Source: Sulfurimonadaceae bacterium
GTDB lineage: Bacteria > Campylobacterota > Campylobacteria > Campylobacterales > Sulfurimonadaceae
Length of the DNA: 64,000 nucleotides
NCBI GenBank assembly: GCA_041571435.1
Contig: JBFFUI010000001.1
Span: forward strand, 83,506 to 147,505
Direction: 5' to 3'
This document shows positions 7,450 through 24,954 of this stretch, in pieces. The notes beneath the pieces were generated by a model, which saw nothing but the letters and a program-made list of their open reading frames with translations, had not been told where the DNA came from and did not search any database. A program made the position numbers and the translations under genes. Each line of letters begins with the position of its first letter. Within the stretch, counting starts at the first letter, position 1.

Positions 7450-7464
7450 GGGTGTTACTTACCC

Positions 7465-7725
7465 TTAGATAGCGTTAACAGCTTGCTGAAGGCGGCTTAC
7501 TTTACGAGCAGCAGTCTCTTTTTTCAAGATACCTTTGCTTACAAATTTATGGATCTGCTGGTTAGCGATCTTAAATGCTGCAGTTGCCTCTTCTTTGTTG
7601 CCTGCTTCGATTGCAGCGCGAACTGCTTTAACAATGTTTTTTAAACGTGTGCGATAGAATCTGTTACGCTCAGTACGTTTTTCAGTCTGGCGGATTCTTT
7701 TCAATGCTGACTTATGGTTTGCCAT
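7465..7725 (-). CDS. rpsT: 30S ribosomal protein S20
   Basis: [13 protein letters not shown]...AARKVSRL; true start is internal to the long track ORF, after an AAGGA SD. Confidence 0.98.
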
Positions 7726-7825
7726 GTGCATTATCCTTATCATATAAAATTTGAGATAGAATGCTACCTTAAATATAATTAAAATCAAGTTAAGCAATAT
7801 AGAGAATTTTAAACGGAGTGTATAA

Positions 7826-9166: not shown

Positions 9167-9662
9167 GTCACTTCTTGTCATTATCCTCTCACTGATCGGT
9201 ATCTTTATTGTCGATCAGGGGATCAAAGAGTTTTTTATGCTCAAAGCTATGGAGATCTACTCTCTCCCTCAAGACGCGCTCTATGGCAAGGCCTTTGATA
9301 TCTATGAGACAAGCTGTATCAACATGCGTCTTGTCTTCAACTACGGGGTCGCCTTCTCAATGCTCTCCTTTTTGGATGAGTACCTCAAGTGGCTTCAGCT
9401 TATCTTGATCATCGGTGTTTTAGCCTATGTCATCAATCTGAAAAAGTTCTGTTATATGTTGCCTTCCGGAATCCTGATCGGTGCGGGACTTTCCAATGTC
9501 TATGACCGTTTTGTCCATGGCGGTGTGGTCGACTACATCTTCTGGCACTGCGGATTTGACTTTGCGATCTTCAATTTTGCCGATGTCATGATCGATCTTG
9601 CCGTCGCATGGCTGCTCTTTTTAAACTTCAAACCGAAGTTTTGCCAGGAAAAACAGGGATAA
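9159..9662 (+). CDS. lspA: Lipoprotein signal peptidase II
   Basis: NYGVAFS, SNVYDR, VVDY, FNFAD motifs. Confidence 0.95.
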
Positions 9663-9742
9663 TTCAACCAAGATAGGAATTTTTTCGGGTTTATAAAATC
9701 AATTTAAGTAATCCTGGTGTAAAATTCCCGTCTCTTTTCAAT

Positions 9743-9818
9743 GGTCCGTTAGCTCAGTTGGTAGAGCGCTACCTCGACAAGGTAGATGTCACAAGTTCAA
9801 GTCTTGTACGGACCACCA
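9743..9818 (+). tRNA. tRNA-Val(GAC)
   Basis: Cloverleaf GGTCCGT...ACGGACC-ACCA; anticodon arm CTACC-TCGACAA-GGTAG; TTCAAGT T-loop. Confidence 0.93.
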
Positions 9819-9935
9819 TCTTCAAAACCCCAAAACAGTAATATTTCAACACTTTTTTCAAACATACAACGCAGTACATCCCTTTGACATTTACATTACT
9901 ATTTCAAGCCAACCGTTTTTAAAAGAGCGGAACCC

Positions 9936-11570
9936 TTAGGCGATCGCAGTGAGGACAATCTCTTTGGCTTCGTCCTGTATCTGTTTGAGATGCTCGGCCG
10001 AGATGAAACTCTCCGCATAGATCTTGTAGATATCTTCTGTTCCGGAGGGGCGTGCAGCGAACCAGCCGTTGTCGGTCGTCACCTTCAGACCGCCTATCTT
10101 TGCACCGTTGCCGCTTGCTTCGATATATTTCCCGACAATGGTCTCGCCTGCAAGTGTTGTCGAGCTGACATTTTCGGCAGAGAGGTTCTTTAGTTTTGCT
10201 TTCTGCTCCGGTGTTGCAGCGGCATCGATACGGGCGTAGTAGGATTGCCCGAACTCGTTTTCGAACCCTTGGTAGATCTCGCCCGGGTCTTTTTTGGTCA
10301 CGGCTTTGATCTCGGCGGCAAGCAGGTTGAGGATGATGCCGTCTTTGTCCGTCGACCAGACGCTCCCGTTCTGACGAAGAAATGAGGCACCCGCACTCTC
10401 TTCGCCGCCGAAACCGAGACTGCCGTCATATAGACCCTCTACAAACCATTTAAACCCTACCGGCACCTCATATACCTCTTTACCTAGCGAATGGACCACA
10501 CGGTCTATCATAGAGCTCGAGACAAGGGTCTTTCCGATACGAAGGTCGTCACGCCACTGCTTACGGTGACTGAAGAGGTACCAGATGGCAACCGAGAGGT
10601 AGTGGTTGGGGTTCATCAGTCCGGCACTCGGTGTCACGATACCGTGACGGTCAAAGTCCGGATCGTTGGCAAAGGCGATATCGTACTTCTCTTTCAGGGA
10701 GATCAGTGAGGCCATGGCATAGGGTGAAGAGCAATCCATGCGGATCTTGCCGTCATGGTCGCAGCTCATAAAACCGAAGGTCGGGTCGACATGCTCATTG
10801 ACGATCTCCATGTCGAGACCGTAGACCTCTTTGATCTTTTGGTAGACCGCGATGCCTGAGCCGCCCATCGGATCAACACCGATGCGCAGGTTTGAAGCCT
10901 TGATGGCCTCAATGTCCACGATGCTCTCCAGCGCACGGACATACGGGGTGATAAAATCGAACTCTTCGATCAGGTCGCTCGCCATCGCCTCATCCAATGA
11001 CACCTTCTTGACCTCATCAAGGCCGTTGGCCAGGATCTCATTGGCACGCTTTTCAATGACAGAGGTGACATCCGTGTCTGCAGGGCCGCCGTTGGGCGGG
11101 TTGTATTTAAAGCCACCATCGCTCGGAGGGTTATGCGAAGGGGTGATGACAACGCCGTCGCTCATGACCGATGTGCCTTTATTGGCTTCAAGGATGGTAA
11201 ACGAGATCAGCGGTGTCGGGGTGTATTCGTCATCTTCGGCGATCTTGCAGCTGACCCCATTGGCAACACAGACCTGGATCGTACTCAGCTGCGCCGGTGT
11301 AGAGAGGGCATGGGTGTCTTTACCGATAAAGAGCGTTCCGGTGATGCCTGCCGACTTTCGGTACTCGCACACGGCCTGGGTAATGGCGAAGATGTGCGCT
11401 TCATTAAAACTCTTCTTGGCCGCACTCCCCCGGTGCCCAGAGGTACCAAAAGCGACCTTCTGCGTGCTGATGCCGGCATCCGGCTGTTGCATGTAGTACG
11501 AAGCGATAAGCTTGGGAATGTCTTCCAAGATGCTTTTAGGGGCTTTCCGCCCAGAGTGTGCATGCGCCAT
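9936..11570 (-). CDS. pgm: Phosphoglucomutase (alpha-D-glucose phosphate-specific, E. coli Pgm type)
   Basis: [36 protein letters not shown]. Confidence 0.95.
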
Positions 11571-11702
11571 TTTTATCCTTTTCAGTGTGTATATTGGGAT
11601 ATGCTTTTGATATCATAATCAAAAGTACATTTCAATCGACACAAATATCCTCCTTTATGCAGATGCATAAAAGATTGACGTGTCATATACGGTGAACTCC
11701 GT

Positions 11703-12326
11703 TTATTTCAAGACTGACAGTGCCTCTTTCGCCAGTGCGGTGATCTGTCCAAAATCCTGACGAACAATGGCCTCTTTCGGAACGATCCAGCTGCCGCCGA
11801 CACAGAGAACATTCTTCAGGGCCAAATAGTCCTTCATATTGTCCAGGCTGATACCGCCTGTCGGGCAGAAACGCATCTCGCTGAAAGGGCCACTGAAGGC
11901 CTTGAGCGTTGCAAGGCCGCCGACGGCAGTTGCCGGAAAGAGTTTTGCCTGCATCAAGCCGCTGTTTTGTGCAAGCATCACTTCGGAGGCGGTCGCCACC
12001 CCGGGGATAAAGGCGATTTTCTGGGCTTTGGCGCTCTCTATGAGCGCTTCGCTGATACCGGGGCTGAAGAGAAAAGCGGAACCGTGCTCGACCGCTTTTT
12101 TCAGATCGGCAGGGTTACAGACGGTTCCGGCACCGACATACATCTCGGGCATCGTTTTGGCAATAGCTTCTATCGCCTTCAGACCAGCCGGTGTACGCAA
12201 AGTGACCTCCATGATCTTGATGCCTCCTTCCAGAAGCGCTTCCGCCAGGGGCAGGGCATCTTTTTCTTCATCGATGGCGATGACCGGGACGATAGGCGAT
12301 ATTTTCATGACATCCAAAGCATTCAT
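11703..12326 (-). CDS. eda: KDPG/KHG aldolase
   Basis: EVTLRT, GAGTV, KLFPA, FCPTGGI, CVGGSW. Confidence 0.95.
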   Translation of the reverse strand: MNALDVMKISPIVPVIAIDEEKDALPLAEALLEGGIKIMEVTLRTPAGLKAIEAIAKTMPEMYVGAGTVCNPADLKKAVEHGSAFLFSPGISEALIESAKAQKIAFIPGVATASEVMLAQNSGLMQAKLFPATAVGGLATLKAFSGPFSEMRFCPTGGISLDNMKDYLALKNVLCVGGSWIVPKEAIVRQDFGQITALAKEALSVLK

Positions 12327-14152
12327 GCGCGCTCCTTGCCGGGTAGATCGAAAATGGCCGCACCCTCTTCCGCAGGGCCGACATTTTGCCGAATTGTCAC
12401 AAAAAGTTCACGGCCGAAACCGTGCCGGTTGCCGCTGAAATCGACAGGGCTGACACTGCGTCCTGCCAGCGTTGCTTCATCGACCAGAAGCGTTATTTCG
12501 CCCTTTTCTATATCCAGCCGTATCCTATCGCCACTCTGCACCTTGGCGATCAGACCGCCCTCTTCGGCTTCAGGCGTAAGATGTATCGCTGAAGGCACCT
12601 TCCCTGAAGCACCGGACATGCGCCCGTCGGTGATGATGGCCACCTTGAACCCTTTGTCCTGAAGAACGCCGAGCGGCGGCATCAGGCCATGCAGTTCCGG
12701 CATACCGTTGGCCTTCGGTCCCTGGTAGCGAACGACGGCGATAAAATCGCGTTCAAGTTCCCCCGCTTTAAAGGCCTCTTGAAGCGACTGCTGAGATTCA
12801 AAGACAATAGCCGGTGCTTCGATATAGTGTTGCGATGCTTTTAGTGCCGAAGTTTTTATAACACTCCGGCCGATACTCCCTTTCAGAAGTTTCAGCCCGC
12901 CCTCTTCACTGAATGGTGTGGCACTGCTAGAGACGACACTCTCGTCGCGCGACACTTTCGGTCCCTTTAAAAAAGTAAGTGAGCCGGATTCAAGCATCGG
13001 TTCGACGATATAATTGTGCAGTCCTTTGCCGACAATGGTCTCGACGTCGTCATGCAGAAGCCCTGCTTCCAGAAGCTGGCTGATGACAACGCTCATACCG
13101 CCCGCGTCCCTGAAATGGTTGACATCGGCCTGCCCGTTCGGATACATCCTGCAGAGCAGCGGTGTCACCTTGGAGATGGCGTCAAAATCATCCCAGTTCA
13201 AGATAATTCCCGCAGCTTTGGCCATGGCAATGAGATGAATCGTATGATTCGTCGAGCCGCCTGTGGCCATCAGACCGACGATTGCATTGACGAAACTTCT
13301 TTCATCGATAGTCTGACCGATCGGTTTATACTTTCCGGAGACCTCAGTCATACCTACAATACGCTTTGCAGCATCCTGAGTAAGGGCATCACGCAGCGCG
13401 GTATTGGTGTTGACAAAAGAGCTGTTTGGCAGCTGCAGTCCCATCATCTCGAGAAGCATCTGGTTAGAGTTTGCCGTACCGTAAAAGGTACAGGTCCCGC
13501 TGCTGTGGTAGGCGGCGGACTCGGCTTTGAGCAGTGTCCCTTCGCTCACTTTACCCTGCGCGAACTCCTGTCGGATCTTGGACTTTTCACTGTTTGAGAT
13601 CCCCGATGGCATAGGCCCTGCGGGCACAAAAACAGCCGGCAGGTGCCCAAAAGAGAGTGCTCCGATCAGCAGACCCGGTACGATCTTGTCGCAGACCCCA
13701 AGGTAGAGGGCCCCGTCATAGACGTTGTGCGAGAGGGCGATGGCGGCCCCCATTGCGATGTTGTCACGGCTGAAGAGGCTGAGCTCCATTCCCGGCTGGG
13801 ACTGTGTCACACCATCGCACATCGCCGGTACACCGCCGGCGACCTGAGCAGTAGCGCCGACATCCATCAGGGCCCGTTTGATCAACGGCGGATAGAGCTT
13901 GTAAGGTTCATGCGCCGAGAGCATATCGTTATAGGCGGTGACAATAGCAATGTTTGGCGCCACATTATGAGAAAGGGCATCTTTCTCCTGAGCGTCCATC
14001 GGGGCCATCGCGTGGGCCAGGTTGCTGCAGCCAAGCATGCCTCTGTTGACGCCGTGCGCCTGTGCAGCTGTGATCCGCGCTTTATATATGGCACGACTCT
14101 CTTGTGAACGGGTAATGATAGCCTCGGTGACTTTTACGATTATCTCATTCAT
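12323..14152 (-). CDS. edd: 6-phosphogluconate dehydratase
   Basis: CSNLAH, YNDMLSAH, AMCDGVTQ, CDKIVPG, GMPELH, TDGRMSGASGKVP. Confidence 0.97.
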   Translation of the reverse strand: MNEIIVKVTEAIITRSQESRAIYKARITAAQAHGVNRGMLGCSNLAHAMAPMDAQEKDALSHNVAPNIAIVTAYNDMLSAHEPYKLYPPLIKRALMDVGATAQVAGGVPAMCDGVTQSQPGMELSLFSRDNIAMGAAIALSHNVYDGALYLGVCDKIVPGLLIGALSFGHLPAVFVPAGPMPSGISNSEKSKIRQEFAQGKVSEGTLLKAESAAYHSSGTCTFYGTANSNQMLLEMMGLQLPNSSFVNTNTALRDALTQDAAKRIVGMTEVSGKYKPIGQTIDERSFVNAIVGLMATGGSTNHTIHLIAMAKAAGIILNWDDFDAISKVTPLLCRMYPNGQADVNHFRDAGGMSVVISQLLEAGLLHDDVETIVGKGLHNYIVEPMLESGSLTFLKGPKVSRDESVVSSSATPFSEEGGLKLLKGSIGRSVIKTSALKASQHYIEAPAIVFESQQSLQEAFKAGELERDFIAVVRYQGPKANGMPELHGLMPPLGVLQDKGFKVAIITDGRMSGASGKVPSAIHLTPEAEEGGLIAKVQSGDRIRLDIEKGEITLLVDEATLAGRSVSPVDFSGNRHGFGRELFVTIRQNVGPAEEGAAIFDLPGKERA

Positions 14153-14844
14153 CGGAAATAGACCTTTACATCAGTGACATCTTGCTGCAAGATGGAGCGG
14201 ATCGGAAGTATGTGCATATCGTCACCTTGGATCGCCTCATTATAAACGACCCGTTTCTCTTGACCCTCAAAGTGAAGATAAAGATGTTTGGCACTTAAAA
14301 TAGCCGCACGTGTCAGACTCATCCGCTCATGAGGCGCAGTTGTCGGTTTAATTGCAATACAGAGACTGCTGTTATGAAGGTCAAGCGCTTCATCGAGTCT
14401 TTCGTTACCGGGGAAAAGAGAGGCAGTGTGGCCATCTGTCCCCATACCAAGTATGACAACATCGAAAGGATAGAGCTCTTTTTCAAGCGTCTCGGTACAC
14501 TCTTTCTGCGCCGCATCTGGTGAGACGCCCTCACGATACATCCCGATGAAACGGGCTTTGGCTGCATTATCCTGAAGGAGATGTGCTTTGACAAACTGTT
14601 CGTTGCTGTCTTGATGATCGGAGGGGACCCACCGCTCATCGCAAAGACCGATAGAGACCTGTTCCCACGGCAGGTCAATACAGCGAAGTTTCTCGAAGAG
14701 CGGTTTCGGGGTGCTTCCTCCGGAGACAAGCAGCGATGCTTTTCCATTGCGGCGGATCGCTTCGACAAGGTCTTTGGCGATCTGCCCGCTCAGGTCATCA
14801 ATCAGCTCGCATTGTGTCGTAAAGGCATGCACATACTTACTCAT
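14149..14844 (-). CDS. pgl: 6-phosphogluconolactonase
   Basis: SGGSTP, DERWV, LGMGTDGHTASLFP; ATG at 14844 overlaps the zwf end. Confidence 0.95.
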   Translation of the reverse strand: MSKYVHAFTTQCELIDDLSGQIAKDLVEAIRRNGKASLLVSGGSTPKPLFEKLRCIDLPWEQVSIGLCDERWVPSDHQDSNEQFVKAHLLQDNAAKARFIGMYREGVSPDAAQKECTETLEKELYPFDVVILGMGTDGHTASLFPGNERLDEALDLHNSSLCIAIKPTTAPHERMSLTRAAILSAKHLYLHFEGQEKRVVYNEAIQGDDMHILPIRSILQQDVTDVKVYFR

Positions 14845-16300
14845 CGTGCCAGCTCCTTCCATCCCTTGCTATAAGCTGGATCGAGGCACTCGGGCCATCG
14901 GTTCCGGCCGTATAGCTCTTCATCGGAGTCAGGTTTTCAGCCCACCCTTCGATGATCCTGTCCGCCCACTTCCAGGCGGCCTCAACTTCATCAAGACGCA
15001 TGAACAGTGTCGGATTGGCACGGATAACATCCAGCAGCAGACGCTCATAGGCCTCGGGTTTACGGAGACTGTTCATCGGGGCATTAAGATCAAGCTCCAC
15101 CTGCTGAAGGCGCATCGTCTCGCTTAGCCCCGGTATCTTGTTCATCAGTTTGAGACGGATACTCTCTTTGGGCTGCAGTGTGATGACCAGTTGGTTTTCT
15201 GAAATGCAGGCACCATTGTTTGCAAAGATAGAGTGCGGCATGGTCTTAAACTGGATCACGATCTCGGAATTACGCTGACGCATCCGCTTGCCGCTTCTGA
15301 TATAGAAAGGGACCCCGTTCCAGCGCCAGTTGTCGATGTCGACACGCAAGGCGGCGAAGGTCTCCGTCGTACTGTTCTCAACCCCTTCGCCTTCAAGATA
15401 GCCCGGGACCGGTTCACCGTTGCTTGATCCTCGTGTGTACTGGGCGCGGACACTTTTCTGCTCAATATCTGCCGGCGACATGGCACGCAGTGAACGCAGG
15501 ACCTTTACCTTTTCATCACGAACGCTGTCCGCTTCGAGCGAACAAGGGGGCTCCATAGCAATAAGACAGAGCAGCTGCATCAGGTGGTTCTGTATCATAT
15601 CGCGCATCGCACCGTATTCGTCATAGTAGCCCCAGCGTCCTTCGACACCGACACTCTCTGCCACCGTGATCTGTATATGGTCGATGTTGTTGGAGTCCCA
15701 CAACGGCATAAAAAAACGGTTGGAAAAACGCAGGGCCATGATGTTTTGAACGGTGTCCTTGCCGAGATAATGGTCAATGCGGTAGACCTGACTCTCCTCA
15801 AAATAGTTCAGGACCTCTTCGTTGATAATGTGCGATGACTTAAGATCCCGGCCGATCGGTTTTTCAAGCACGACACGGCTATGCGGGGTAATGAGATCCC
15901 AATGGCTGAGCGCCTTGCAGATAGTCCCGAAAAAATCCGGCGATGTAGAGAGATAGTTGACACGTTCACGCTCGGAGTATTCATCCAGAAGCGTCTTCAG
16001 CCCTTGATAACTTGAAAAGTCAGCAAAATTGACAGCATGAACGCGAAGCCGCTGCTGAAAGGCCTCGAACTTCGCGTCATCGAATTCCCCCTCAGGTAGG
16101 AACTCCAGGAGTTTTGACTTGACCAGCGCAATATGCTCACTCTCGTCCATAACGTCACGGCTTAAGGTGATGATGCGCGAATTGGCGTTGAGATAACCGT
16201 CACTGTAGAGGAAATAGAGTGCCGGCAGCAGCTTGCGAAATGCCAGATCGCCGTGCCCTCCAAAGATCATGATGTCACAAAGGTTTTCTAATTCACTCAT
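14837..16300 (-). CDS. zwf: Glucose-6-phosphate 1-dehydrogenase
   Basis: GDLAFRKLLP, EKPIG, YRIDHYLGK, RDMIQNHL, RWNGVPFY. Confidence 0.97.
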   Translation of the reverse strand: MSELENLCDIMIFGGHGDLAFRKLLPALYFLYSDGYLNANSRIITLSRDVMDESEHIALVKSKLLEFLPEGEFDDAKFEAFQQRLRVHAVNFADFSSYQGLKTLLDEYSERERVNYLSTSPDFFGTICKALSHWDLITPHSRVVLEKPIGRDLKSSHIINEEVLNYFEESQVYRIDHYLGKDTVQNIMALRFSNRFFMPLWDSNNIDHIQITVAESVGVEGRWGYYDEYGAMRDMIQNHLMQLLCLIAMEPPCSLEADSVRDEKVKVLRSLRAMSPADIEQKSVRAQYTRGSSNGEPVPGYLEGEGVENSTTETFAALRVDIDNWRWNGVPFYIRSGKRMRQRNSEIVIQFKTMPHSIFANNGACISENQLVITLQPKESIRLKLMNKIPGLSETMRLQQVELDLNAPMNSLRKPEAYERLLLDVIRANPTLFMRLDEVEAAWKWADRIIEGWAENLTPMKSYTAGTDGPSASIQLIARDGRSWHDE

Positions 16301-16331
16301 ACCTGTCTGCCTTTTTTGCCCCTGTTAAGAG

Positions 16332-17159
16332 TTACTGTTTTTCCAATTTATAAAAGTAGTTGGTCGCTTCCACAAAACCGTCTACGCTCCCGCAGTCAAA
16401 ACGTTTGCCTTTGAACTTATAGGCGATGACCATGCCATTTTTCGCCTGTGCGCAGAGCGCATCGGTAATCTGAAGTTCGCCATTTTTACCCGGTTTCGTA
16501 TTTTCGATGACCTTGAAGATGTCCGGTGACAGGATATAACGGCCGATGACAGCAAGATTGGTCGGCGCTTTGTCAATGTCAGGTTTTTCGACCATATTGG
16601 AGACCATATAGACACCATCTTCGATCATGTTTCCTTCGATGACGCCGTACTTGTGCACCTCTTCCATCGGGACCTCCATGGTCGCGACGATACAGCATTT
16701 ATACTTGCTGTAGAGGTCTACCATCTGTTTTAAGACACCGTCGCCGTCGGGGTTGACACAGAGGTCATCTGCCAGAATAACAGCAAAAGGGTCCTGCTCG
16801 CCGACAAGGACTTTCCCTTTGTAGATCGCATCACCCAAGCCCTTCATCTCGTTTTGACGGGTATAGGTGAAGGTACATTTATCAATGATCTTGCGGATGT
16901 CTTCGAGAAGCGCCTCTTTAGATGACCCCTTGATCTGATGTTCAAGTTCATAGGAGATGTCAAAATGGTCGGTGATCGCCCGTTTTCCACGCCCCGTAAT
17001 CACCGACATGACATCACATCCGGCCTCCATCGCCTCTTCGACACCGTACTGGATAAGCGGTTTGGTCAGGACAGGCAGCATCTCTTTGGGCATTGCTTTG
17101 GTTGCAGGCAGGAACCGTGTTCCGTATCCTGCGGCCGGGAATAGACATTTTGTAATCAT
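16332..17159 (-). CDS. galU: UTP--glucose-1-phosphate uridylyltransferase
   Basis: PAAGYGTRFLPATKAMPKEMLP, VEKP, ELQITDA. Confidence 0.96.
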   Translation of the reverse strand: MITKCLFPAAGYGTRFLPATKAMPKEMLPVLTKPLIQYGVEEAMEAGCDVMSVITGRGKRAITDHFDISYELEHQIKGSSKEALLEDIRKIIDKCTFTYTRQNEMKGLGDAIYKGKVLVGEQDPFAVILADDLCVNPDGDGVLKQMVDLYSKYKCCIVATMEVPMEEVHKYGVIEGNMIEDGVYMVSNMVEKPDIDKAPTNLAVIGRYILSPDIFKVIENTKPGKNGELQITDALCAQAKNGMVIAYKFKGKRFDCGSVDGFVEATNYFYKLEKQ

Positions 17160-17202
17160 TGATTTTCCTTTTGTTGTTGTGTTTTTGGCGTTATATTACG
17201 CA

Positions 17203-18921
17203 TCAGTGTTTACCTTTAAGCCACATCATCTGATAGGGTTGAAGAGTGATCTCTCTTGTCTCGTCCAATGTAAACGAAGAGAGCAGATCATGCAGCGGAT
17301 CGATAAAATCGTCTGGAAGCTGCACCGTAACCTCCTCGTTCGAGAAGTTGTGCAGCACCACGATATATTCGCGATTATCACAGCATCGCTGGTCTATGAC
17401 AAAGAGGCGACTGTCAAGATCAAGAAATTGAAACGTTCCAAAGGGATTGAAGGCGTTTTCGTTTATGCGGATCGAGATTAGCCGTTTGTAACTGTCAAGC
17501 ATCGTCTTGGCAAGCGACCCCTGTTTTGAAAGCTCATTCTCCAGCCAATCGACATTGTACTTTTCACGGTTGATCGAACGGTTTATACCGGTGTGTTTCA
17601 CCCCGTCATGGTAGTTTCTCGAACCTACCAATGAGTGAAAGTAGATGCCCGGAACACCCGGCATGACCAAAACGGTTGCCTGTGCAAGCAGCATCCTTTT
17701 CAGACGCATCATGTCGTCTTCGTCGGGATGAGTCAGCGCATCGATGTAACTGCAGTTTAGTTCATACGGCGTTTCCGAGCCATCCTCTTCGGTCCTGTAG
17801 GAGACAAGACCGCCGTGCGACTCTATCGTCGAAACCAGATAATCGATCTCTTCGTCATTGAGGATCCCCTTGACCGGTCGCATACCGATGCCGTCATGAC
17901 TGGCGGTAAAGTTAAAAAAACAGACCTTGTCGCTCGGCAGAGTCAGGGTCTGCGCCCAGGAGGTCAAAGTTGACGTATCCCCATGCAAAATGGAGTGCAG
18001 CAGCAACGGCGGCAGCGCAAAGTTATAGACCATCTGCGCTTCGTCGTCCCCGCTTCCAAAATAAGAGACGTTCTCATGATGGGGGACATTGGTCTCCGTG
18101 ATGATAATCACCTCAGGCGCCACTTCGTGAAGCACCTCCCGCATCAGCTGGATGAGTTCATGTGTCTGCGGCAGATGCACACACTCGGTCCCGATCTCTT
18201 TCCAGATAAAAGCGATGGCATCAAGCCGGATAAGTGTCGCCCCTTTTTCGATGTAATAAAAGAGCGCATCAAGGACATTGCGCAGAACCCGGTGGTTCTT
18301 GTAATTCAGGTCGACCTGGTCCTTGCTGAACGTCGTCCAGATATTATGGATCTTGCCTTCATTATCGGTAAACTCGCTCAACAGCGGTGTCGCTCTGGGT
18401 CGGACAACCTTGCTGAGATCGGTCATAGGGTCCACTTCGATAAAAAAATCTCTAAAGTAGCTGTCACCGGAAAGGTAGGCTTTAAACCAGTCTGAAAACT
18501 GGGAGACATGGTTGATGACGCCGTCAACCATCAGACGATAATCGGCACCGATCGTTTCGATCTCGCGCCATGAGCCCATGTGCGGATCAACGGCACTGTA
18601 GTTGACGACCGAAAACCCGCTGTCAGACGAAGCCGGATAGAACGGCAGAATGTGCACCGAATTTATGACCCCATGCAGGTGATCCGTCATAAAGTCATAC
18701 AGTGTCTGCAATGAAGGTTCGTTAGCACGGTTCACCTGATCCCCATAAGTAATCAGGACAATATCTTTATGACTGAGATGATACTCGGTGGATACGATAC
18801 GCTGCTTGTATTTGAAAATAAGGTCGATAATATCGTTGACCGCTCGCTCCGCTACCTCGGGCGAATAAAGCTGGTGCAGACGCTTGTTTATGGTATGGTC
18901 TGGATCGGAGATATGTTTCAC
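17203..18921 (-). CDS. GH13_18 sugar phosphorylase, most likely glucosylglycerate phosphorylase
   Basis: LITYGD, HILPF, WTTFS, RLDA nucleophile, ITETN acid/base, ASHDGIG and PYELN loop; adjacent to gpgS. Confidence 0.85.
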   Translation of the reverse strand: MKHISDPDHTINKRLHQLYSPEVAERAVNDIIDLIFKYKQRIVSTEYHLSHKDIVLITYGDQVNRANEPSLQTLYDFMTDHLHGVINSVHILPFYPASSDSGFSVVNYSAVDPHMGSWREIETIGADYRLMVDGVINHVSQFSDWFKAYLSGDSYFRDFFIEVDPMTDLSKVVRPRATPLLSEFTDNEGKIHNIWTTFSKDQVDLNYKNHRVLRNVLDALFYYIEKGATLIRLDAIAFIWKEIGTECVHLPQTHELIQLMREVLHEVAPEVIIITETNVPHHENVSYFGSGDDEAQMVYNFALPPLLLHSILHGDTSTLTSWAQTLTLPSDKVCFFNFTASHDGIGMRPVKGILNDEEIDYLVSTIESHGGLVSYRTEEDGSETPYELNCSYIDALTHPDEDDMMRLKRMLLAQATVLVMPGVPGIYFHSLVGSRNYHDGVKHTGINRSINREKYNVDWLENELSKQGSLAKTMLDSYKRLISIRINENAFNPFGTFQFLDLDSRLFVIDQRCCDNREYIVVLHNFSNEEVTVQLPDDFIDPLHDLLSSFTLDETREITLQPYQMMWLKGKH

Positions 18922-20129
18922 GTATTATCCTTTTTAACATACTCGGAAAACTTTTCGGAAAATTCCGGCAGTACCGAACGGACGGTGATCCATGGCGAAA
19001 GCGCGGGGACGCCCATCGGATCCTGATAGAACTCCTCTGCCGCCTCTTTGATGGCACATTCAAATGCCTCAACCGCATTGATCTCTTTTTCCCGGTTATA
19101 TTTGAGTGCGTTGAGTTTGCTTAAGGCGTTGTATTTGGAGATCTCGAAACGCGACTCCTGAAAATAGGTGGCCAAAAGCGTTTTAAACGAGGCCTCAGAG
19201 AAGATAATACCCTCTTGCGCCAGGACGCGAAAGAGGGTCTTGGCAATATCATTTGCCATTTTATAGACACCGTCGCAGGAGTCCTGACTGCCGAGCTCCT
19301 GATGTTTGTGCTCGTAACTCTCCATAATCTCTGTCTGGCAGATACGTCTGTTGGAGGTGTTTTTATAGACTTCACTGAGTGTCGAGACCTCCAGTCCCCA
19401 TGTTGGCGAGATACCGATACCCCGTCCCAGCGAACGGATAAAGGCGAACTCTCCCGAAAGCGAGTAACGGAAGCTCTCCATGTAATCGAGGTACCGGTTG
19501 CTGCCGAACACTTTGACCAGCGAGTGCACAAGAGGCGAATAGAAGAGGCGTGTCACGCGTCCGTGAAGTTTGTCGGTGACACGGGAGTAAAAACCTTTAT
19601 TGAACTCAAAGTCCAAGGCCGGGTGGACAATAGGGAAAAAGAGTCTTGCAGGAACCTCGCGGGTGTAGTTGACAATATCACAGTCATGCAGTGCAAACGC
19701 ATACGCATCGACATCGGTCAGACCATACCCCAGCATAGTCCAGACGTTACGCCCCTTACCCGGTGTGTCAAGACCAGGAAACCCTTCACTGGTCAGTTGG
19801 GCATAGAGCTCTTGTATTCGCGGTCCGTCGTTCCACAGGACATCGACCTCACAAGGCAGGACCGACATCAGCTCTTTGACCTCTTCAAACTGCTCTTTCG
19901 TCGCACGATCAAGTCCAAGAATGATCTTGTAGAGGTAGGTCACCCCTTTAAGCTCTTCGATGATCCTGTACATAGCCGGGGTCTCAAACTCTGAGTAAAG
20001 GGCCGGAAGAAGAAGGACCATCCGCCGGCGTTTACCGTACTCTTTCAGCTCTAATTCCATCTCTTCGAGTGATCTGTCACCCAGTTTCTGCAATGTCGTA
20101 ATGACACCGTTTTGAAAAAAGTCAGCCAT
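18918..20129 (-). CDS. gpgS: Glucosyl-3-phosphoglycerate synthase (GT81)
   Basis: MADFFQNGVITTL N-terminus, GKGRNVW, HDCD, GRVTRL, WGLEV, YEHKHQ. Confidence 0.85.
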   Translation of the reverse strand: MADFFQNGVITTLQKLGDRSLEEMELELKEYGKRRRMVLLLPALYSEFETPAMYRIIEELKGVTYLYKIILGLDRATKEQFEEVKELMSVLPCEVDVLWNDGPRIQELYAQLTSEGFPGLDTPGKGRNVWTMLGYGLTDVDAYAFALHDCDIVNYTREVPARLFFPIVHPALDFEFNKGFYSRVTDKLHGRVTRLFYSPLVHSLVKVFGSNRYLDYMESFRYSLSGEFAFIRSLGRGIGISPTWGLEVSTLSEVYKNTSNRRICQTEIMESYEHKHQELGSQDSCDGVYKMANDIAKTLFRVLAQEGIIFSEASFKTLLATYFQESRFEISKYNALSKLNALKYNREKEINAVEAFECAIKEAAEEFYQDPMGVPALSPWITVRSVLPEFSEKFSEYVKKDNT

Positions 20130-21441
20130 TAAGTTCTCCTTGTTTTATATTTGGCTCGACCACCATCATGACGATATCGAGCAGGTTGTTGTGGGTCGGA
20201 CCCGGCATGAGCAGTTCGCCTGTCTTGGCGAAAAAAGCGTTGGAGTCAAAGGTCTCAAGATAGTATATCGGATCGATTCCAAACGCTTTCGCATTGATAC
20301 GGCTGTTCGTGTCTATAAGTGCCCCCGCCGCATCCGAGTTGCCATCAACACCATCAGTTGCAGCACTCAAAAAGGAGATCTCCGTCTTGCCGCTAAGTGC
20401 CAGCATCACACAGAGTGCCAGATGCTGGTTCCGGCCGCCCCGACCGTCACCTCTTACATTGACAGTCGCCTCACCGCCGAGAATAAAGCAGTGTCTCTCC
20501 CCCTCATAGCTCTCGGCCAGCTCAACCAGCGACGCCGCAAGTTCGTTGGCATCACCTTGAAGCGGTTTTGATACAAGTGTCGTTGCAAGCCCGGCCGTTT
20601 CCAGCAATTCTCTGGCCCTGTTGATAACAATAGTGTTCGAACCGAGGATGAAGTGACGGATACCCTTCTTCTCCGATTTCGGCGTCTCGGGATGTTTTCC
20701 CTCTGCACCTTCGCGTAAAAAGTGCTGTACACCCTGTGGCAGACTGTCGAACAGTGCAAACGACTGAAGTGACTTGATGGCATCTGCAAAGGTCGTCGTA
20801 TCAAAATAGAGCGGTGCAGAACCGATGGCGTGGAGATCATCGCCCAGTACATCCGAAAGAACAAGGACAATCCCTTTGGCTTGCGTACACGCAGCCAGCT
20901 TCCCGCCTTTGACACGCGAGAGATGCTTGCGAACGCAGTTTATCGCTTCGATAGGCATACCACCTTTGAGCATTATCGATGTCGTTGCCTGAAACTCTTC
21001 CAAAGTGATCGATGCCTCCGGAAGTTCGACCAGAGCAGAATTCCCGCCCGACAGAAGATAGATAAAAAAGTCATCTTCACCCAGACTTTCCAACTTTTTC
21101 CTCAAAGCATTAGCCGCTTTTACGCTGTTTGTCGTTGGAAGCGGATGGGTGCTTTTAATGTAGTGTGTTCCGTCAGGGAGAGCACTCTTCTCATAGGCCC
21201 CTACGATCAAGGTATCAGCGATCTTGTCGCCCAGCAGGCCCTGTACCGCTTCGGTCATCGGCAAAACTGCTTTACCCGAACCGAGAAGGTGTATCTTTTT
21301 ATACGGCTTTAATGCAATAGCCGTATCGTTTACCGTCAAGGTCTCATCCTCATAGCAGCACTGCTCTGCAATAAGATTTTGCGGTTTGATCTCTTCGATC
21401 AGTCTGTTAAAGGTGTTGAACAGCAGCTTTTTAGTGGACAT
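20122..21441 (-). CDS. Glycerate 2-kinase (MOFRL/TtuD, class II)
   Basis: GKA, HPLP, LLSGG, RKHLSRVKGG, SDVLGD, GGRNQ, TDGVDG. Confidence 0.88.
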   Translation of the reverse strand: MSTKKLLFNTFNRLIEEIKPQNLIAEQCCYEDETLTVNDTAIALKPYKKIHLLGSGKAVLPMTEAVQGLLGDKIADTLIVGAYEKSALPDGTHYIKSTHPLPTTNSVKAANALRKKLESLGEDDFFIYLLSGGNSALVELPEASITLEEFQATTSIMLKGGMPIEAINCVRKHLSRVKGGKLAACTQAKGIVLVLSDVLGDDLHAIGSAPLYFDTTTFADAIKSLQSFALFDSLPQGVQHFLREGAEGKHPETPKSEKKGIRHFILGSNTIVINRARELLETAGLATTLVSKPLQGDANELAASLVELAESYEGERHCFILGGEATVNVRGDGRGGRNQHLALCVMLALSGKTEISFLSAATDGVDGNSDAAGALIDTNSRINAKAFGIDPIYYLETFDSNAFFAKTGELLMPGPTHNNLLDIVMMVVEPNIKQGELNG

Positions 21442-22204
21442 TAAAATACTCCTTAAGCGCTTCATTCCACCCTTTTGGACCGGGGAAAGGGGCTTTCACA
21501 AGGGACGCAATATCGCAAGTGATATAACTGCCGTCAGGATGCGGTATAAGGATCGGGGTGTCAATACTTTGCAGCATTGTCAGATCGTTTTCGCTGTCGC
21601 CCAGAGCAATGCTTTTGTAAACTGTCCCGCTCGCTTTTTCATAACGCTCAATCAGTTTCTTAATGGCAGATGCCTTGTCTTGCCCTTTGGTGATAAGGTG
21701 ATAAAAACGTCCCCCTTTCACAATGTCAAAACCGTCTTCTTCTGCCAACGCTTTTAATGGCTCAAGATCACCGTCGTATTCAAGGACAAAGGGCTCGCTG
21801 AAGGTACGGTCTTTGGCTTTGGCAGCCGCATCATATGCAAGGCCTGTCCGCTGAGCTATCTCTTCGACAGACATGTCAAAAAAACCCCGCATCGGTACGG
21901 TTTCGGCATACTTGTCAAAAAAACGACGTGTTTCCGCATAAAGCGTACCAAGCGCGATCATCGTGTAGCTCCCCTTTTCAGGAATAAAGATACCTGCCCC
22001 GTTTTCGATGATAAAAGGGTCACTGATGCCCAAGGCACTCTGAAGCTCTATCACCTCGCCTTTAGTCTTGCTGGTCACGATGATCAAAGGGATGTTATTC
22101 TTTTTGATGTATTCAATCATCGGAAGTGCCGGTGCATAACTGTAGCTTCCATGGTCAAGCAGCGTACCGTCAAGGTCGGTAAATATCAAGGTGTCTGATA
22201 ACAT
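21431..22204 (-). CDS. gpgP: Glucosyl/mannosyl-3-phosphoglycerate phosphatase (HAD-IIB)
   Basis: FTDLDGTLL, TSKT, ENG, GGRFYH, LGDSENDLTML, GPKGW. Confidence 0.85.
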   Translation of the reverse strand: MLSDTLIFTDLDGTLLDHGSYSYAPALPMIEYIKKNNIPLIIVTSKTKGEVIELQSALGISDPFIIENGAGIFIPEKGSYTMIALGTLYAETRRFFDKYAETVPMRGFFDMSVEEIAQRTGLAYDAAAKAKDRTFSEPFVLEYDGDLEPLKALAEEDGFDIVKGGRFYHLITKGQDKASAIKKLIERYEKASGTVYKSIALGDSENDLTMLQSIDTPILIPHPDGSYITCDIASLVKAPFPGPKGWNEALKEYFNVH

Positions 22205-22461
22205 AATGGTACAGTATAACTTATAATGCTTATTTATATTTCACAAGGCTGTATATAATTTAAACATCTACTGTTTATTTAAGACATCACACCTGTCTTC
22301 CCGTGCCTGCAGACTATAGTAGACATGCATATCGATAGGGTTACAGACGTATCTCAGGAGCGAAACATTTTGCTGCTTTATAGTTGCGTTGGAAGTACGC
22401 ACTAAAGGCGTGTGTCACGAGCCGTTCTGGTCATTTTTGGTACGAAAACGGGTGCTCTTTT

Positions 22462-24954
22462 TTACCGGTTAGGTCCAAACGGTTTGACCAGCAAGATCAG
22501 CTTCGGCAGCAACATCAGGTCAGCGATGATCGCCATGAACATCGTCAACACTGTCAACAGTCCGAAATAGATGGTCGGAATAAAGACCGAGATCACCAGG
22601 ATCAAAAACCCTATCATGATGGCAACAGAGGTGTAGGTCATTGCATAGCCGATACTCTCATGCGAACGGTGCATTGCCGCGAGATAGTCCCTGTCTTTGG
22701 CAAACTCGATCTTATAACGGTAGATATAGTGGATCGTATCATCGACCGCTATACCAACACTGATCGCTGCAATAGTGATGGTCATCATATCCAGCGGTAT
22801 ACCGCTCCAGCCCATAAAACCAAAGATCACCCCGATCGGTATGAGGTTGGCAATCATAGCGATAACAGCGACTGTAAATGATCTGAAGAGCATGAAAAAC
22901 ATCGCACTCAACAGCAAGACCATAATACCGAGCGTCAATATCTGGGAACTGTAGAGGCTCTGGAGCATGTTGTTGTATAAGACCATGATGTTGGATAGGT
23001 GGACATTTTGCTCTTCTATGCCTAACTTTGTGACAAGGTCACTTTTGATCCTTTTGAGCAGTTCATCGCGCCTCAGATCTTCGTTTGAGTCGATGATACG
23101 CAGTGCAAACCGAGTCTGGTTGTTCTCAATACTGATATAGGGGTCTAAAACGATACTGCGGAAGTTGTCTGGGAGTTCGTTGTAGAGCAGTGCCAGCTGA
23201 AAGTTGTCCAGATCCTTCCCATCGTTGAGCGTGCGGCCGAGTTCAAGCATCGTCCCCAGAGAGAGCACTTTGCCGACTTCTGGAATATTCTCAAGATAGG
23301 CGTGGACCTTCCGGACAACATCCATCTTGTCGGGCGAAAACCAGTATTGTGCCTCGTTCTCGGAAGCAGCAAACTCCTCCTCGAAATCATCGAACTCGGA
23401 GAAAGCATCATCGGCAGCCGGCGCACTCTTTTTCTCCACTTTGGCCGCCTCCGGAGGGAAATCGATGAGAATATCTAGCGGGGTCGTTCCGCCGAGCTTC
23501 TGATCGATGACCGCCATCCCCTGATAGATCTCGGTAGAGGGTTTGAAGTAGTTGATAAAACTGTTTTCCACCATCAGCTTTGACGCACCCGAAAGACTGA
23601 ACACAATAACGGCTAGACTGATGGCAATAATCGATTTTCCGTAGCGCTCTGTAACGGTCGCAAAAACTCTTGTCGGCGAGAGTGTGGATTCAAAATATGA
23701 TACCGGTCTGCATTTTGGCATCAATATCATAATGGAGGGGAAGATTAGATAGGTCAACAACAGGGAGACCGCGATACCGACACTCATCATCAGACCGAGA
23801 TTGATCACCGGCAGGATATTTGAAAAGATCAAAGAGGCAAAGCCCGCAATGGTGGTGATAACGGCAAAAAAGGTCGGCTTTGCCATGGAGGTAACGGTAT
23901 CAAGGACCAGCTTATGCTGCGTCGATGCTTCATCCACACGTGCCAGCTCTCTGTATCGTACAATAAGGTGGATCACGATGGACATTGTAATAATCAGCTG
24001 CAGGGAGACAAAGTTGGAGGAGATCACCGTCACCTCCCAGCCGAACAGTCCGAGCAGTCCCACACTGGAGATGATAGAGACCGTGACGATCAATACCGGG
24101 ATCATGACCCAATGCAGCTCTCTGAACACCACCCAGAGCACCAGGATCAGAAGAAACAGTACAACAATACCGTACGTTTGGAGATCCTTTTTGACATAGG
24201 TGATCATATCATCGGAGATCATACTTGTTCCACCCAAAAAGAGGGTGGCATGGTTGCGGTAGCCTTCCATCACGTCGCGAATGTCCTGAATGTTTTTATG
24301 CTCGGTCATACGGAGCATGTCTCTGTGGAGTTTAAATGTTTTTACGACACTCTTCAGCTCTTCTCGCTCGGCAGCACTGATCGTCTTGTCGCGCTCTTTC
24401 TGGCGCAGAATATCTCTCTTTTTGAGCAGGTCATAATAGAGTTCATCCATATTGAGATTGATCATCAGCGCAGTCGTTTTAAAGTCATCGCTGACCAGAT
24501 TGTGCTGGTAGATCGGACTGTTGAGCAGCTCATATTTTGCCATGGTGAGATTGATGTCCGGTGATTCGAGCGTCGGAATCTTCTTAAGCATCTCTTTGAG
24601 CGGTTTGGCCGGACTCTGCATTAACGGCACGTTCAGAATAGAGGTAACCGACGCTACAGTCGGCAGACTGGTCAACGCGTCACTCAGTCGTCTGATCTCT
24701 TGACGTGATCTGGCCGAAAGAAGATCATCTTTTGGGGTATACGCGATGACTAGAAAGTCCAGTGTCTGGTAGCGTTGACTGATGAGTCGTGAATACCTGA
24801 GGTCCTTGTCGTGTTCCAGCAGCAGCGTCTCTGCCGATGCATCGACCTCCATCTTGAAGGCCTGCGTACCGAGAAAGCCCACCACTAAAAAAACAAGAAG
24901 CAGTATACTTTTTGGGTATTTTAGGATCAGCCCCCTGTACAATCCTCTTAACAT
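22462..24954 (-). CDS. MMPL/RND-family lipid transporter
   Basis: Two TM bundles with large periplasmic loops, TTIAGFASL, GIAVDDTIH, LGGTTPL. Confidence 0.88.
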   Translation of the reverse strand: MLRGLYRGLILKYPKSILLLVFLVVGFLGTQAFKMEVDASAETLLLEHDKDLRYSRLISQRYQTLDFLVIAYTPKDDLLSARSRQEIRRLSDALTSLPTVASVTSILNVPLMQSPAKPLKEMLKKIPTLESPDINLTMAKYELLNSPIYQHNLVSDDFKTTALMINLNMDELYYDLLKKRDILRQKERDKTISAAEREELKSVVKTFKLHRDMLRMTEHKNIQDIRDVMEGYRNHATLFLGGTSMISDDMITYVKKDLQTYGIVVLFLLILVLWVVFRELHWVMIPVLIVTVSIISSVGLLGLFGWEVTVISSNFVSLQLIITMSIVIHLIVRYRELARVDEASTQHKLVLDTVTSMAKPTFFAVITTIAGFASLIFSNILPVINLGLMMSVGIAVSLLLTYLIFPSIMILMPKCRPVSYFESTLSPTRVFATVTERYGKSIIAISLAVIVFSLSGASKLMVENSFINYFKPSTEIYQGMAVIDQKLGGTTPLDILIDFPPEAAKVEKKSAPAADDAFSEFDDFEEEFAASENEAQYWFSPDKMDVVRKVHAYLENIPEVGKVLSLGTMLELGRTLNDGKDLDNFQLALLYNELPDNFRSIVLDPYISIENNQTRFALRIIDSNEDLRRDELLKRIKSDLVTKLGIEEQNVHLSNIMVLYNNMLQSLYSSQILTLGIMVLLLSAMFFMLFRSFTVAVIAMIANLIPIGVIFGFMGWSGIPLDMMTITIAAISVGIAVDDTIHYIYRYKIEFAKDRDYLAAMHRSHESIGYAMTYTSVAIMIGFLILVISVFIPTIYFGLLTVLTMFMAIIADLMLLPKLILLVKPFGPNR

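Follow-up and report, generated by a model that had tools for sequence, protein, structure and literature searches.

Clusters in which a glucosylglycerate phosphorylase (GGaP) is accompanied by a glycerate kinase, a synthase of glucosyl-3-phosphoglycerate (GpgS) and a glucosyl-3-phosphoglycerate phosphatase (GpgP) have already been published (PMC7178133, citing Franceus 2017), and the same gene association is described, along with the turnover of glucosylglycerate (GG), in PMC11009771. The role of GGaP in vivo has been called open (PMC7178133). A 'glucosylglycerate metabolism operon' is known from Prochlorococcus, and compatible solutes have been discussed in that context as an energy store (10.1101/2024.05.01.591941), while in mycobacteria GG accumulates under nitrogen starvation and is mobilised by a GG hydrolase (PMC5381378; cited in PMC11009771). 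The subject of this study is a ten-gene locus that joins such a GG module to a complete Entner-Doudoroff (ED) pathway. It lies in a stretch of 64,000 nucleotides, hereafter the window, comprising positions 83,506 to 147,505 of contig JBFFUI010000001.1 in the genome of a Sulfurimonadaceae bacterium (GCA_041571435.1).

The ED pathway of such bacteria has a literature of its own. Papers on the genomes of environmental Campylobacterota repeatedly report it as complete in organisms that lack a hexokinase and do not grow on sugars; it is either left without explanation or interpreted as degradation of glucose (PMC4584990, PMC13609358, PMC11406935). Arcobacter anaerophilus IR-1, for instance, has a complete ED pathway, lacks hexokinase and showed no growth when offered glucose, fructose, galactose or sucrose (PMC4584990); the full set of ED genes, with no oxidative pentose-phosphate pathway, is reported for Sulfurovum sp. 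MH2-6 (PMC13609358); and glucose degradation is the interpretation given for environmental Campylobacteria in two reports (PMC11406935, PMC12261689). The papers describing ED genes in A. anaerophilus IR-1, in Sulfurovum sp. MH2-6 and in Sulfurospirillum make no link to GG. For the locus described here, the reading that we favour, and on the basis of sequence comparison consider reasonably probable, is that the block constitutes a conserved hexose-phosphate unit of two modules joined at galU, in which GG would feed the ED pathway as a recoverable store.

Gene content of the locus

Ten co-oriented open reading frames (ORFs) occupy positions 9936-22204 of the window, with no further long ORF among them. 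These and the features bordering them are:

21431-22204, minus strand: gpgP, HAD-IIB glucosyl/mannosyl-3-phosphoglycerate phosphatase family, 257 aa
20122-21465, minus strand: glycerate 2-kinase family gene, DUF4147 + MOFRL, 447 aa
18918-20129, minus strand: gpgS, predicted glucosyl-3-phosphoglycerate synthase, Methanococcoides type, GT-A fold, 403 aa
17203-18921, minus strand: GGaP, predicted GH13_18 glucosylglycerate phosphorylase, 572 aa, GTG start
16332-17159, minus strand: galU, UTP-glucose-1-phosphate uridylyltransferase, extra copy, 275 aa
14837-16300, minus strand: zwf, glucose-6-phosphate dehydrogenase, 487 aa
14149-14862, minus strand: pgl, 6-phosphogluconolactonase, 237 aa
12323-14152, minus strand: edd, phosphogluconate dehydratase, 609 aa
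11703-12326, minus strand: eda, 2-keto-3-deoxy-6-phosphogluconate/4-hydroxy-2-oxoglutarate (KDPG/KHG) aldolase, 207 aa
9936-11570, minus strand: pgm, alpha-phosphoglucomutase, 544 aa
9743-9818, plus strand: tRNA-Val(GAC), low-coordinate border of the variable site containing the cluster
22205-22461, minus strand: AT-rich spacer of 257 nt, 5' of gpgP, a putative promoter region

These ten genes had been named in a first-pass annotation made from the sequence alone, and all of the identities, together with the chemistry that they imply, are upheld by family scans (Pfam and NCBIfam, scored against NCBIfam curated cut-offs), motifs and structures. The overlapping or very short junctions that it noted are also seen from gpgP to eda, where the ORF coordinates give overlaps of 35 nt (gpgP/kinase), 8 nt (kinase/gpgS), 4 nt (gpgS/GGaP), 26 nt (zwf/pgl), 4 nt (pgl/edd) and 4 nt (edd/eda), and gaps of at most 43 nt (GGaP-galU 43 nt, galU-zwf 31 nt). 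The gap between eda and pgm is 132 nt and contains a weak hairpin at 11674-11651; pgm may form a transcript separate from gpgP to eda. A promoter and terminator scan of positions 9400-22700 was uninformative, returning 13 promoter-like and 16 terminator-like features against shuffle means of 13.4 and 13.0 respectively. Of 18 sequencing runs listed, none from RNA contains the stretch.

Within the GG module, gpgP scores above the cut-off of the MPGP-family model (TIGR01486, 223.6 bits against 164.75) and matches the solved structures 3ztw, an MpgP (E = 1.1e-32), and 1xvi (E = 1.6e-29); the family takes in both glucosyl- and mannosyl-3-phosphoglycerate phosphatases. The glycerate kinase has both expected domains (PF13660, DUF4147, 220.9 bits; PF05161, MOFRL, 114.7 bits) and resembles a solved glycerate kinase (PDB 2b8n, E = 1.2e-65), while falling under the cut-offs of the glycerate 2-kinase model NF041176 (222.9 bits against 550) and of the archaeal equivalog models. 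Residues 3-402 of the 403 in GpgS align to positions 2-399 of the 402 in NF040724 (317.1 bits, E = 1.5e-94; cut-off 700), with no Pfam match and, in a single-sequence search, no PDB match. There are 1315 homologues at E <= 0.001 among 1.84 billion representatives, and across 68 aligned homologues the GKG motif and the DxD-type motif H148-D149-x-D151 (here H148-D149-C-D151) are near-invariant. A profile of these 68 matches seven PDB sequences, all of which are mycobacterial GpgS or Rubrobacter MpgS (E 1.4e-19 to 2.3e-15). Furthermore, when an AlphaFold (AF2) model of the protein (pLDDT 96, pTM 0.93) is searched with Foldseek, ranks 1-23 are all mycobacterial GpgS, with TM(target) of 0.67-0.75. 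The predicted function of glucosyl-3-phosphoglycerate synthase is accepted from these alignments and the model. Its donor is probably UDP-glucose, because an extra galU adjoins; the GpgS of Rhodopirellula baltica uses ADP-glucose (PMC3736172).

The phosphorylase contains the GH13 catalytic domain (PF00128, 94.3 bits), and its top PDB sequence matches, with E from 4.5e-59 to 1e-43, are to phosphorylases of sucrose and of glucosylglycerol. It falls under the cut-off of the sucrose phosphorylase model TIGR03852 (232 bits against 334), as expected of an enzyme other than sucrose phosphorylase. Strict glucosylglycerate phosphorylases are marked by a (T/S)ETN motif and by a Glu that replaces Gln in loop A (PMC7178133). 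Both marks are present, in 'IIITETNVP' and 'PYELNCSY', the latter aligning to 'IYQINCT'/'IYQLTCT' of solved sucrose/glucosylglycerol phosphorylases such that Glu stands opposite Gln. TETN is found in 78 of 78, and PYE[LI]N in 77 of 78, of the related-locus homologues whose alignment covers 400 aa or more. The predicted assignment as glucosylglycerate phosphorylase (EC 2.4.1.352) is accepted on these signatures. Mannosylglycerate and glucosylglycerol were considered as alternative products and rejected: the phosphorylase carries the marks of GGaP, the model that best fits the synthase is that of GpgS, and VGAIYQ, the glucosylglycerol phosphorylase motif, is absent.

The cluster galU is above its cut-off (TIGR01099, 387.9 bits against 326.8) and is the only one of the ten genes not single copy in the genome: a second galU of housekeeping type, 71% identical to it, is located at C64:334-1146. 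Two galU genes are similarly present in most of the cluster-bearing congeners, while congeners with no cluster have only the 71-73% type. The remaining five genes all exceed their cut-offs: zwf (TIGR00871, 575.9 bits against 400.6), pgl (TIGR01198, 190.9 against 124.45), edd (TIGR01196, 959.9 against 708.25; about 31% identical to an IlvD paralogue elsewhere on the contig), eda (TIGR01182, 256 against 156.05; NF004325, 271.2 against 241) and pgm (TIGR01132, 877.6 against 778.05), the last being the sole alpha-phosphoglucomutase of the genome. The ED pathway is therefore complete, with Zwf, Pgl, Edd and Eda all over curated cut-offs.

Several variants of the GG module were encountered among relatives and more distant bacteria. 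In three congeners a co-oriented gene for a Na+/Pi cotransporter (PF02690) lies just 5' of gpgP (L017:14991-16694, L018:14614-16308 and L021:4318-6012); this fits a phosphate-consuming phosphorolysis, and may be incidental. Two tandem GGaP copies, of 72% and 73% identity, are found at L079, and a locus labelled Candidatus Scalindua (L104) has a GGaP homologue of 61% identity with no gpgP, kinase or gpgS nearby. A natural GpgS-GGaP fusion of 991 aa (P0124, MEE2903252.1, named by NCBI as 'alpha-amylase family glycosyl hydrolase [Myxococcota bacterium]') consists of a GpgS part, residues 1-401, 43% identical to the GpgS of the window, and a GH13_18 part, 43% identical to its GGaP and carrying TETN and PYEIN. 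The fusion comes from a Myxococcota metagenome-assembled genome; P0273 belongs to it as well, and its two full-length members are located on different contigs. The existence of such fusions implies that co-production of synthase and phosphorylase is normal for the GG system.

Conservation and linkage of the two modules

The distribution of the two modules was studied in 41 related genomes. GGaP and GpgS are present in an identical set of 11, and a true Edd, defined by at least 71% identity (the remaining matches, at 30-34%, being IlvD-like), is also present in 11. Both modules occur in ten genomes, GG alone in one (G022), Edd alone in one (G017) and neither in 29. Within the genus, eight of 16 genomes have both modules and eight have neither, four of the latter being less than 90% complete. 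The first-pass annotation had proposed a search for synteny between gpgS, the GH13_18 gene and edd, and this revealed the nine-gene order from gpgP to eda in six of the seven other GGaP-bearing congeners (G002, G003, G004, G006, G007 and G009); in the seventh, G013, the contig ends after galU. Among these congeners pgm adjoins the cluster only in G002 and G007. Nevertheless, all 12 family genomes that have a GG or ED module also have pgm, as against one of the 13 with neither, hence pgm belongs with the modules even when it does not adjoin them.

Outside the genus the arrangement is looser. In two other genera of the family (G020 and G024), gpgP-kinase-gpgS-GGaP-galU is located apart from zwf-pgl-edd-eda, G022 has a stand-alone GG module and G017 a stand-alone galU-zwf-pgl-edd-eda. 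As galU either ends the one module or begins the other, this suggests that the GG and ED modules have been fused at galU. In G020, a divergent gene resembling a GH9 endoglucanase (CelD_N + Glyco_hydro_9; L027:5211-7241) is situated upstream of the stand-alone zwf-pgl-edd-eda.

A wider survey encompassed 79 loci, with one genome per species and gene order determined by tblastn. The core gpgP-kinase-gpgS-GGaP is detected in 71 of these and in 69 of the 70 with sufficient upstream sequence; the kinase missed by tblastn is, by Pfam, a divergent DUF4147 + MOFRL protein. The exact nine-gene order is found in 21 of the 79 loci and is followed by pgm in seven (two Sulfurimonadaceae, five Arcobacter), while edd lies inside the locus in 26. 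One edd locus (L071) follows the usual order up to the end of its contig, and the variant linkages comprise an inserted pgm on the opposite strand (L040), a locus with no galU (L059) and two in which the ED genes are upstream (L081 and L086). In some Arcobacteraceae pgi is appended, after pgm (L045), eda (L038) or galU (L100). The ED-linked carriers are labelled Sulfurimonadaceae, Sulfurovum and Arcobacter/Halarcobacter. In a GGaP tree of 77 rows, built by a quick method, the label for ED linkage changes at least seven times across starred branches, some of the 'unlinked' rows being merely short contigs. Such repeated gain or loss of the linkage is the pattern predicted by functional coupling. 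The nine-gene arrangement is not due to chance, and the block is a common unit across relatives rather than special to the window.

The conserved position of the kinase also bears on the direction in which GGaP works. The enzyme might instead be synthetic, making GG from glucose-1-phosphate (G1P) and glycerate by a second route independent of nucleotide sugars, with the kinase and ED genes as unrelated neighbours. The reaction is reversible and has been exploited for synthesis in vitro (PMC11009771), and the fused enzymes indicate that GpgS and GGaP are produced together. However, 69 of the 70 loci mentioned above retain a glycerate-consuming kinase flanked by gpgP and gpgS, no enzyme producing glycerate is found in the cluster, and cellular phosphate would normally favour phosphorolysis. 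A synthetic role therefore seems very improbable.

Possible sources of hexose phosphate for the ED pathway

The genome containing the window is 2.16 Mb in 66 contigs and is estimated from marker genes as 100% complete and 0.81% contaminated. Searches of it found no member of the hexose kinase families sought (glucokinase PF02685, ROK and BcrAD_BadFG), no EIIC component of a phosphotransferase system (PTS), no glycogen phosphorylase and no 6-phosphogluconate dehydrogenase (6PGD); the best matches to glycogen synthase (glgA), at 52 and 29 bits, fall short of the cut-off, which is 328. Both PGI and PFK are encoded. As 6PGD was not found, Zwf and Pgl would serve only the ED pathway, with no oxidative pentose-phosphate branch. 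With no hexose kinase, PTS, glycogen synthase, glycogen phosphorylase or 6PGD identified, the one identified store from which G1P could reach the ED enzymes is GG, and these genome-level absences make it the likeliest feeder of the pathway in this organism.

According to the favoured reading of GG as a store, synthesis would draw on fructose-6-phosphate, converted by PGI, from outside the cluster, to glucose-6-phosphate (G6P) and then by Pgm to G1P. The extra, dedicated GalU would activate this, probably to UDP-glucose; GpgS would join the glucose to 3-phosphoglycerate; and GpgP would strip off the phosphate to leave GG, a nitrogen-free anionic osmolyte. For mobilisation, GGaP would convert GG and phosphate to G1P and glycerate, assuming that it runs in this direction in vivo. 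The kinase would return the glycerate, at the cost of an ATP, to glycolysis as 2-phosphoglycerate, while Pgm would convert G1P to G6P, to be taken through 6-phosphogluconate and KDPG to pyruvate and glyceraldehyde-3-phosphate with a yield of NAD(P)H. The glucose half would thus be regained with no ATP cost. By textbook stoichiometry, such mobilisation returns reducing power and net substrate-level ATP, with no initial hexokinase step. That the genes are co-transcribed and that GG is used as a reserve are likewise inferred.

The phylum as a whole was then compared through 401 sampled genomes of 90% completeness or more. Edd is present in 69, of which 56 belong to two small-genome families, which we infer to be Helicobacteraceae and Campylobacteraceae, and 13 are among the remaining 125 genomes. 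The ED loci of Helicobacter and of glucose-positive Campylobacter are of the type in which glk and a glucose permease accompany zwf-pgl-edd-eda. In the sample, glk (PF02685) is present in all 56 Edd-bearing genomes of the two families, lying a few kb from edd in all six of those compared, and GGaP is present in none of their 276 genomes. In the 13 Edd-bearing genomes of other families, GGaP is found in nine and glk in only three, leaving ten with no glk; five of the 125 have GGaP with no Edd. The distinction that the first-pass annotation drew between this cluster, with neither glucokinase nor permease, and glucose-using ED loci is therefore well founded (glk in 56/56 against 3/13). The same four ED enzymes are shared, with Edd 54-60% identical, but the Helicobacter/Campylobacter-type genomes have glk and no GGaP, whereas in the window's genome GGaP and GpgS are present and glk was not found. 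The locus does not belong to the glucose-utilisation type, as no glucokinase was found in its genome and the permease is on another contig, not linked to the ED genes.

That permease, a GluP/NagP-like member of the major facilitator superfamily (the fucose/glucose/GlcNAc family) on contig C12 beside a Cof-type phosphatase, is the only sugar-type permease in the genome. The genome search proposed at the outset thus mostly favoured the store-and-burn idea, with no glk, no glgA above cut-off and no glycogen phosphorylase, but one candidate sugar permease. The permease raises the alternative that sediment-derived GG or glucose is imported and broken down by the cluster, the ED pathway serving mixotrophy as genome papers usually assume. 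Support for this could be drawn from the Prochlorococcus GG operon, which holds a transporter and for which uptake of external GG has been proposed (10.1101/2024.05.01.591941), and from the published interpretation of the ED pathway as glucose degradation (PMC11406935, PMC12261689). However, all 15 congeners and 21 of the 24 family genomes have the permease irrespective of Edd, so it does not explain the ED genes; there is no transporter in the cluster or among its conserved neighbours; neither a hexose kinase family nor a PTS was found in the genome; GpgS, GpgP and the extra GalU are biosynthetic; and A. anaerophilus IR-1 does not grow on the four sugars listed above (PMC4584990). Scavenging is consequently regarded as improbable.

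A more serious alternative is that the locus is a general hexose-phosphate hub, in which the ED pathway disposes of G6P arising from gluconeogenesis, alpha-glucan (in the relatives) or recycling of envelope sugars, and supplies NAD(P)H and three-carbon units. GG would then be only an osmolyte, and the adjacency would stem from a common pool of G1P and G6P. Consistent with this are the presence of PGI and PFK, the pgi genes appended to Arcobacteraceae clusters, the occurrence of galU-zwf-pgl-edd-eda with no GG genes in G017, and the dedication of Zwf and Pgl to the ED pathway that follows from the missing 6PGD. Furthermore, a weak-to-moderate match to PF00343 is found in ten of the 12 family genomes bearing GG or ED modules and in one of the 13 others, the protein in G003 being an alpha-glucan family phosphorylase (TIGR02094, 442 bits against 191.7) encoded in a pgm-gap-pgi-phosphorylase-pgk cluster. 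On the other hand, the linkage of GG and ED arose repeatedly and in differing arrangements; the window's own genome and G002, the only two of the 12 in which PF00343 is missing, have no phosphorylase other than GGaP; and making G6P by gluconeogenesis in order to split it would gain nothing with no intermediate store. A hub of this kind is judged to be unlikely, though well short of negligible.

The G003 cluster itself (G003:C1:60000-79999, L118; ORFs 6745-18506) comprises pgm, the gene for GAPDH, pgi, the alpha-glucan phosphorylase gene, pgk and two further ORFs. One of these encodes an 834-aa fusion of NDP-sugar pyrophosphorylase and phosphomutase, the other a 679-aa protein with no NCBIfam match at E <= 1e-10. 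Neither the cluster nor its phosphorylase nor the 679-aa protein has a counterpart in the window's genome.

Some of the same observations, and several others, weigh against the interpretation of GG as the store that feeds the ED pathway. Synthesis and breakdown encoded in one apparent operon would amount to a futile cycle costing NTP unless it were controlled post-transcriptionally; as the genes are apparently co-transcribed, control would have to be exerted at that level, for example by effects of ions, phosphate or metabolites. With PGI and PFK present, the ED pathway could be fed by gluconeogenic G6P, and G6P could leave by the Embden-Meyerhof-Parnas route. The alpha-glucan-type phosphorylase of relatives could supply G1P, and an unrecognised hexose kinase may act together with the GluP/NagP-like permease. 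The two modules can also occur apart: the ED pathway is found with no GG in G017 and in four of the 13 Edd-bearing genomes outside the small-genome families, and GG with no ED in G022, in five of the 14 GGaP genomes of the phylum sample and in ten loci labelled Flavobacteriaceae/Bacteroidota that have 10 kb of sequence 3' of GGaP. In G017, galU is joined to zwf even though no GG genes are present. Finally, the related genomes are not independent, such that counts of co-occurrence overstate the support.

The 'store-and-burn' cycle originally suggested is thus retained as a coherent, conserved unit favoured by the absences in its genome, but tempered by the presence of PGI and PFK and of an alpha-glucan phosphorylase in ten of the 12 family carriers. 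Its description as self-contained fits this genome and G002, and not the group, where an alpha-glucan-type phosphorylase is found elsewhere. Across the family, the data fit an ED pathway that accompanies internal glucose stores, whether GG, alpha-glucan or both, with GG the only such store identified in the window's own genome. The suggestion that the host is probably a sulfur-oxidising autotroph is favoured by the citrate-binding domain of ATP-citrate lyase present in the genome and qualified by SoxB, which was sought there and not found. A gene resembling SQR (sulfide:quinone reductase) at 4813-6258 of the window has as its best model 'type III SQR, selenoprotein subtype', at 187.7 bits under a cut-off of 525.

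A bolder proposal, possible but on balance doubtful, is that in Campylobacterota that are chemolithoautotrophic and non-saccharolytic (Sulfurimonadaceae, Sulfurovum, Arcobacteraceae) the orphan ED pathway does not serve to consume glucose but to mobilise GG held as an internal store. GG would be at once osmolyte, counter-ion and main soluble reserve of carbon and reductant, replacing glycogen in this genome and released with no expenditure of ATP. Its level would be set by a constitutive cycle of synthesis and phosphorolysis, so tightly coupled that some bacteria fuse both enzymes. The physical fusion of the GG cycle to the ED genes may explain why a sugar-burning pathway is kept with no glucose kinase; it ties together two loose ends and yields a definite hypothesis open to testing with cultures. 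Were a compatible solute to double as an energy reserve, it would change how carbon storage, survival of gaps in electron-donor supply and osmoadaptation are modelled in the abundant sulfur oxidisers of sediments and vents. Should the hypothesis fail, the locus would be a well-annotated example of a known osmolyte module beside ordinary genes of central metabolism.

Variable site, transfer and comparison with known systems

The cluster fills a variable slot between housekeeping genes, with an RND/MMPL-type transporter gene upstream and tRNA-Val, lspA and glmM downstream. In G015 the slot is empty, with 209 nt separating the RND gene from tRNA-Val, and in G010 it holds a different ORF of 718 aa (slot loci L113 and L116); the ten genes occupy it in the window and in G002, while the cluster of G007 is located elsewhere. 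Of the hallmarks of an island, no integrase is found among the ten genes, and no word of 9 nt or longer is common to the two borders. The GC content of the cluster is 51.3%, against 47.7% for the genome, and its GC content at third codon positions (GC3, 0.50-0.66) lies inside the range of 16 other genes of the window (mean 0.587, sd 0.055). Elsewhere the GC content of the cluster follows that of the host, at about 31% in Arcobacter for example. Recent transfer was considered on the basis of composition and rejected, because GC3 is inside the window range and cluster GC tracks host GC. Elsewhere in the window, a 184-aa ORF (30119-30673) aligns to models of spermidine synthase through two separate segments, residues 2-47 and residues 67-184; as these models have 262-287 positions, it may be a truncated or rearranged spermidine synthase gene.

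Protein identities point to exchange of the GG module over a longer distance. The ThrS of the window is 64% identical to that of Arcobacteraceae and 42-43% to that of two Flavobacteriaceae; in the same genomes, GpgS is 83-86% and 81-82% identical, respectively, and GGaP 79-80% and 75-78%. Edd (68-73%) and Zwf (69-72%) lie closer to the ThrS baseline. In the GGaP tree, ten Flavobacteriaceae/Bacteroidota rows form one clade (support 100) inside an otherwise campylobacterotal clade (support 100). This nesting, along with GpgS and GGaP identities far above that of ThrS, indicates that the GG module has been transferred between phyla. The four-gene GG module with no ED genes was observed in records labelled Flavobacteriaceae/Bacteroidota at L037, L053, L055-L058, L060, L062, L066, L068 and L083; the Flavobacteriaceae carriers include Wenyingzhuangia, Flavicella and Ochrovirga, and their GpgS and GGaP are 80-83% and 75-81% identical to those of the window.

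The proposed role of GG resembles that in mycobacteria, where it is a stress solute later broken down as a ready source of carbon and energy. There, however, hydrolysis releases free glucose, the GpgS belongs to the short GT81 type of actinobacteria, and an ED cluster is not known to be involved (PMC5381378; cited in PMC11009771). Breakdown at the window's locus would be phosphorolytic, saving one ATP per glucose relative to mycobacterial hydrolysis. In this respect it is closer to glycogen or alpha-glucan phosphorylase acting with Pgm, in which an internal glucose store is likewise converted to G1P by phosphorolysis; congeners have such a phosphorylase gene beside pgm. Unlike glycogen, the proposed store would be a soluble, charged and osmotically active disaccharide-like solute, and the enzymes of the polymer were sought in the window's own genome and not found.

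The unit had been thought undescribed in Campylobacterota. The literature searched, from which many subscription papers are outside coverage, contained no work linking GG to the ED pathway in this phylum or, among the papers listed, GG to Campylobacter, as judged by title or the opening of the abstract, and none on GG in Sulfurimonas or Arcobacter; the association of gpgP, kinase, gpgS and GGaP, by contrast, was already published. The closest described systems are therefore the GGaP clusters of PMC7178133, PMC11009771 and Prochlorococcus, which share with the window the set of GGaP, kinase, GpgS and GpgP, the TETN motif and loop-A Glu, and a view of GGaP as a sink through which GG is turned back into G1P and glycerate. 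Unlike them, the window's locus has no transporter, and its host is a Campylobacterota bacterium of the reductive tricarboxylic acid cycle type in which no hexose kinase was found. The window and 26 of the 79 related loci further differ from the known clusters in that zwf-pgl-edd-eda is joined to the GG genes, usually via a dedicated galU and sometimes along with pgm or pgi. Hence the novelty of the locus is as a new combination of known modules, the module for synthesis and phosphorolysis of GG being itself already known.

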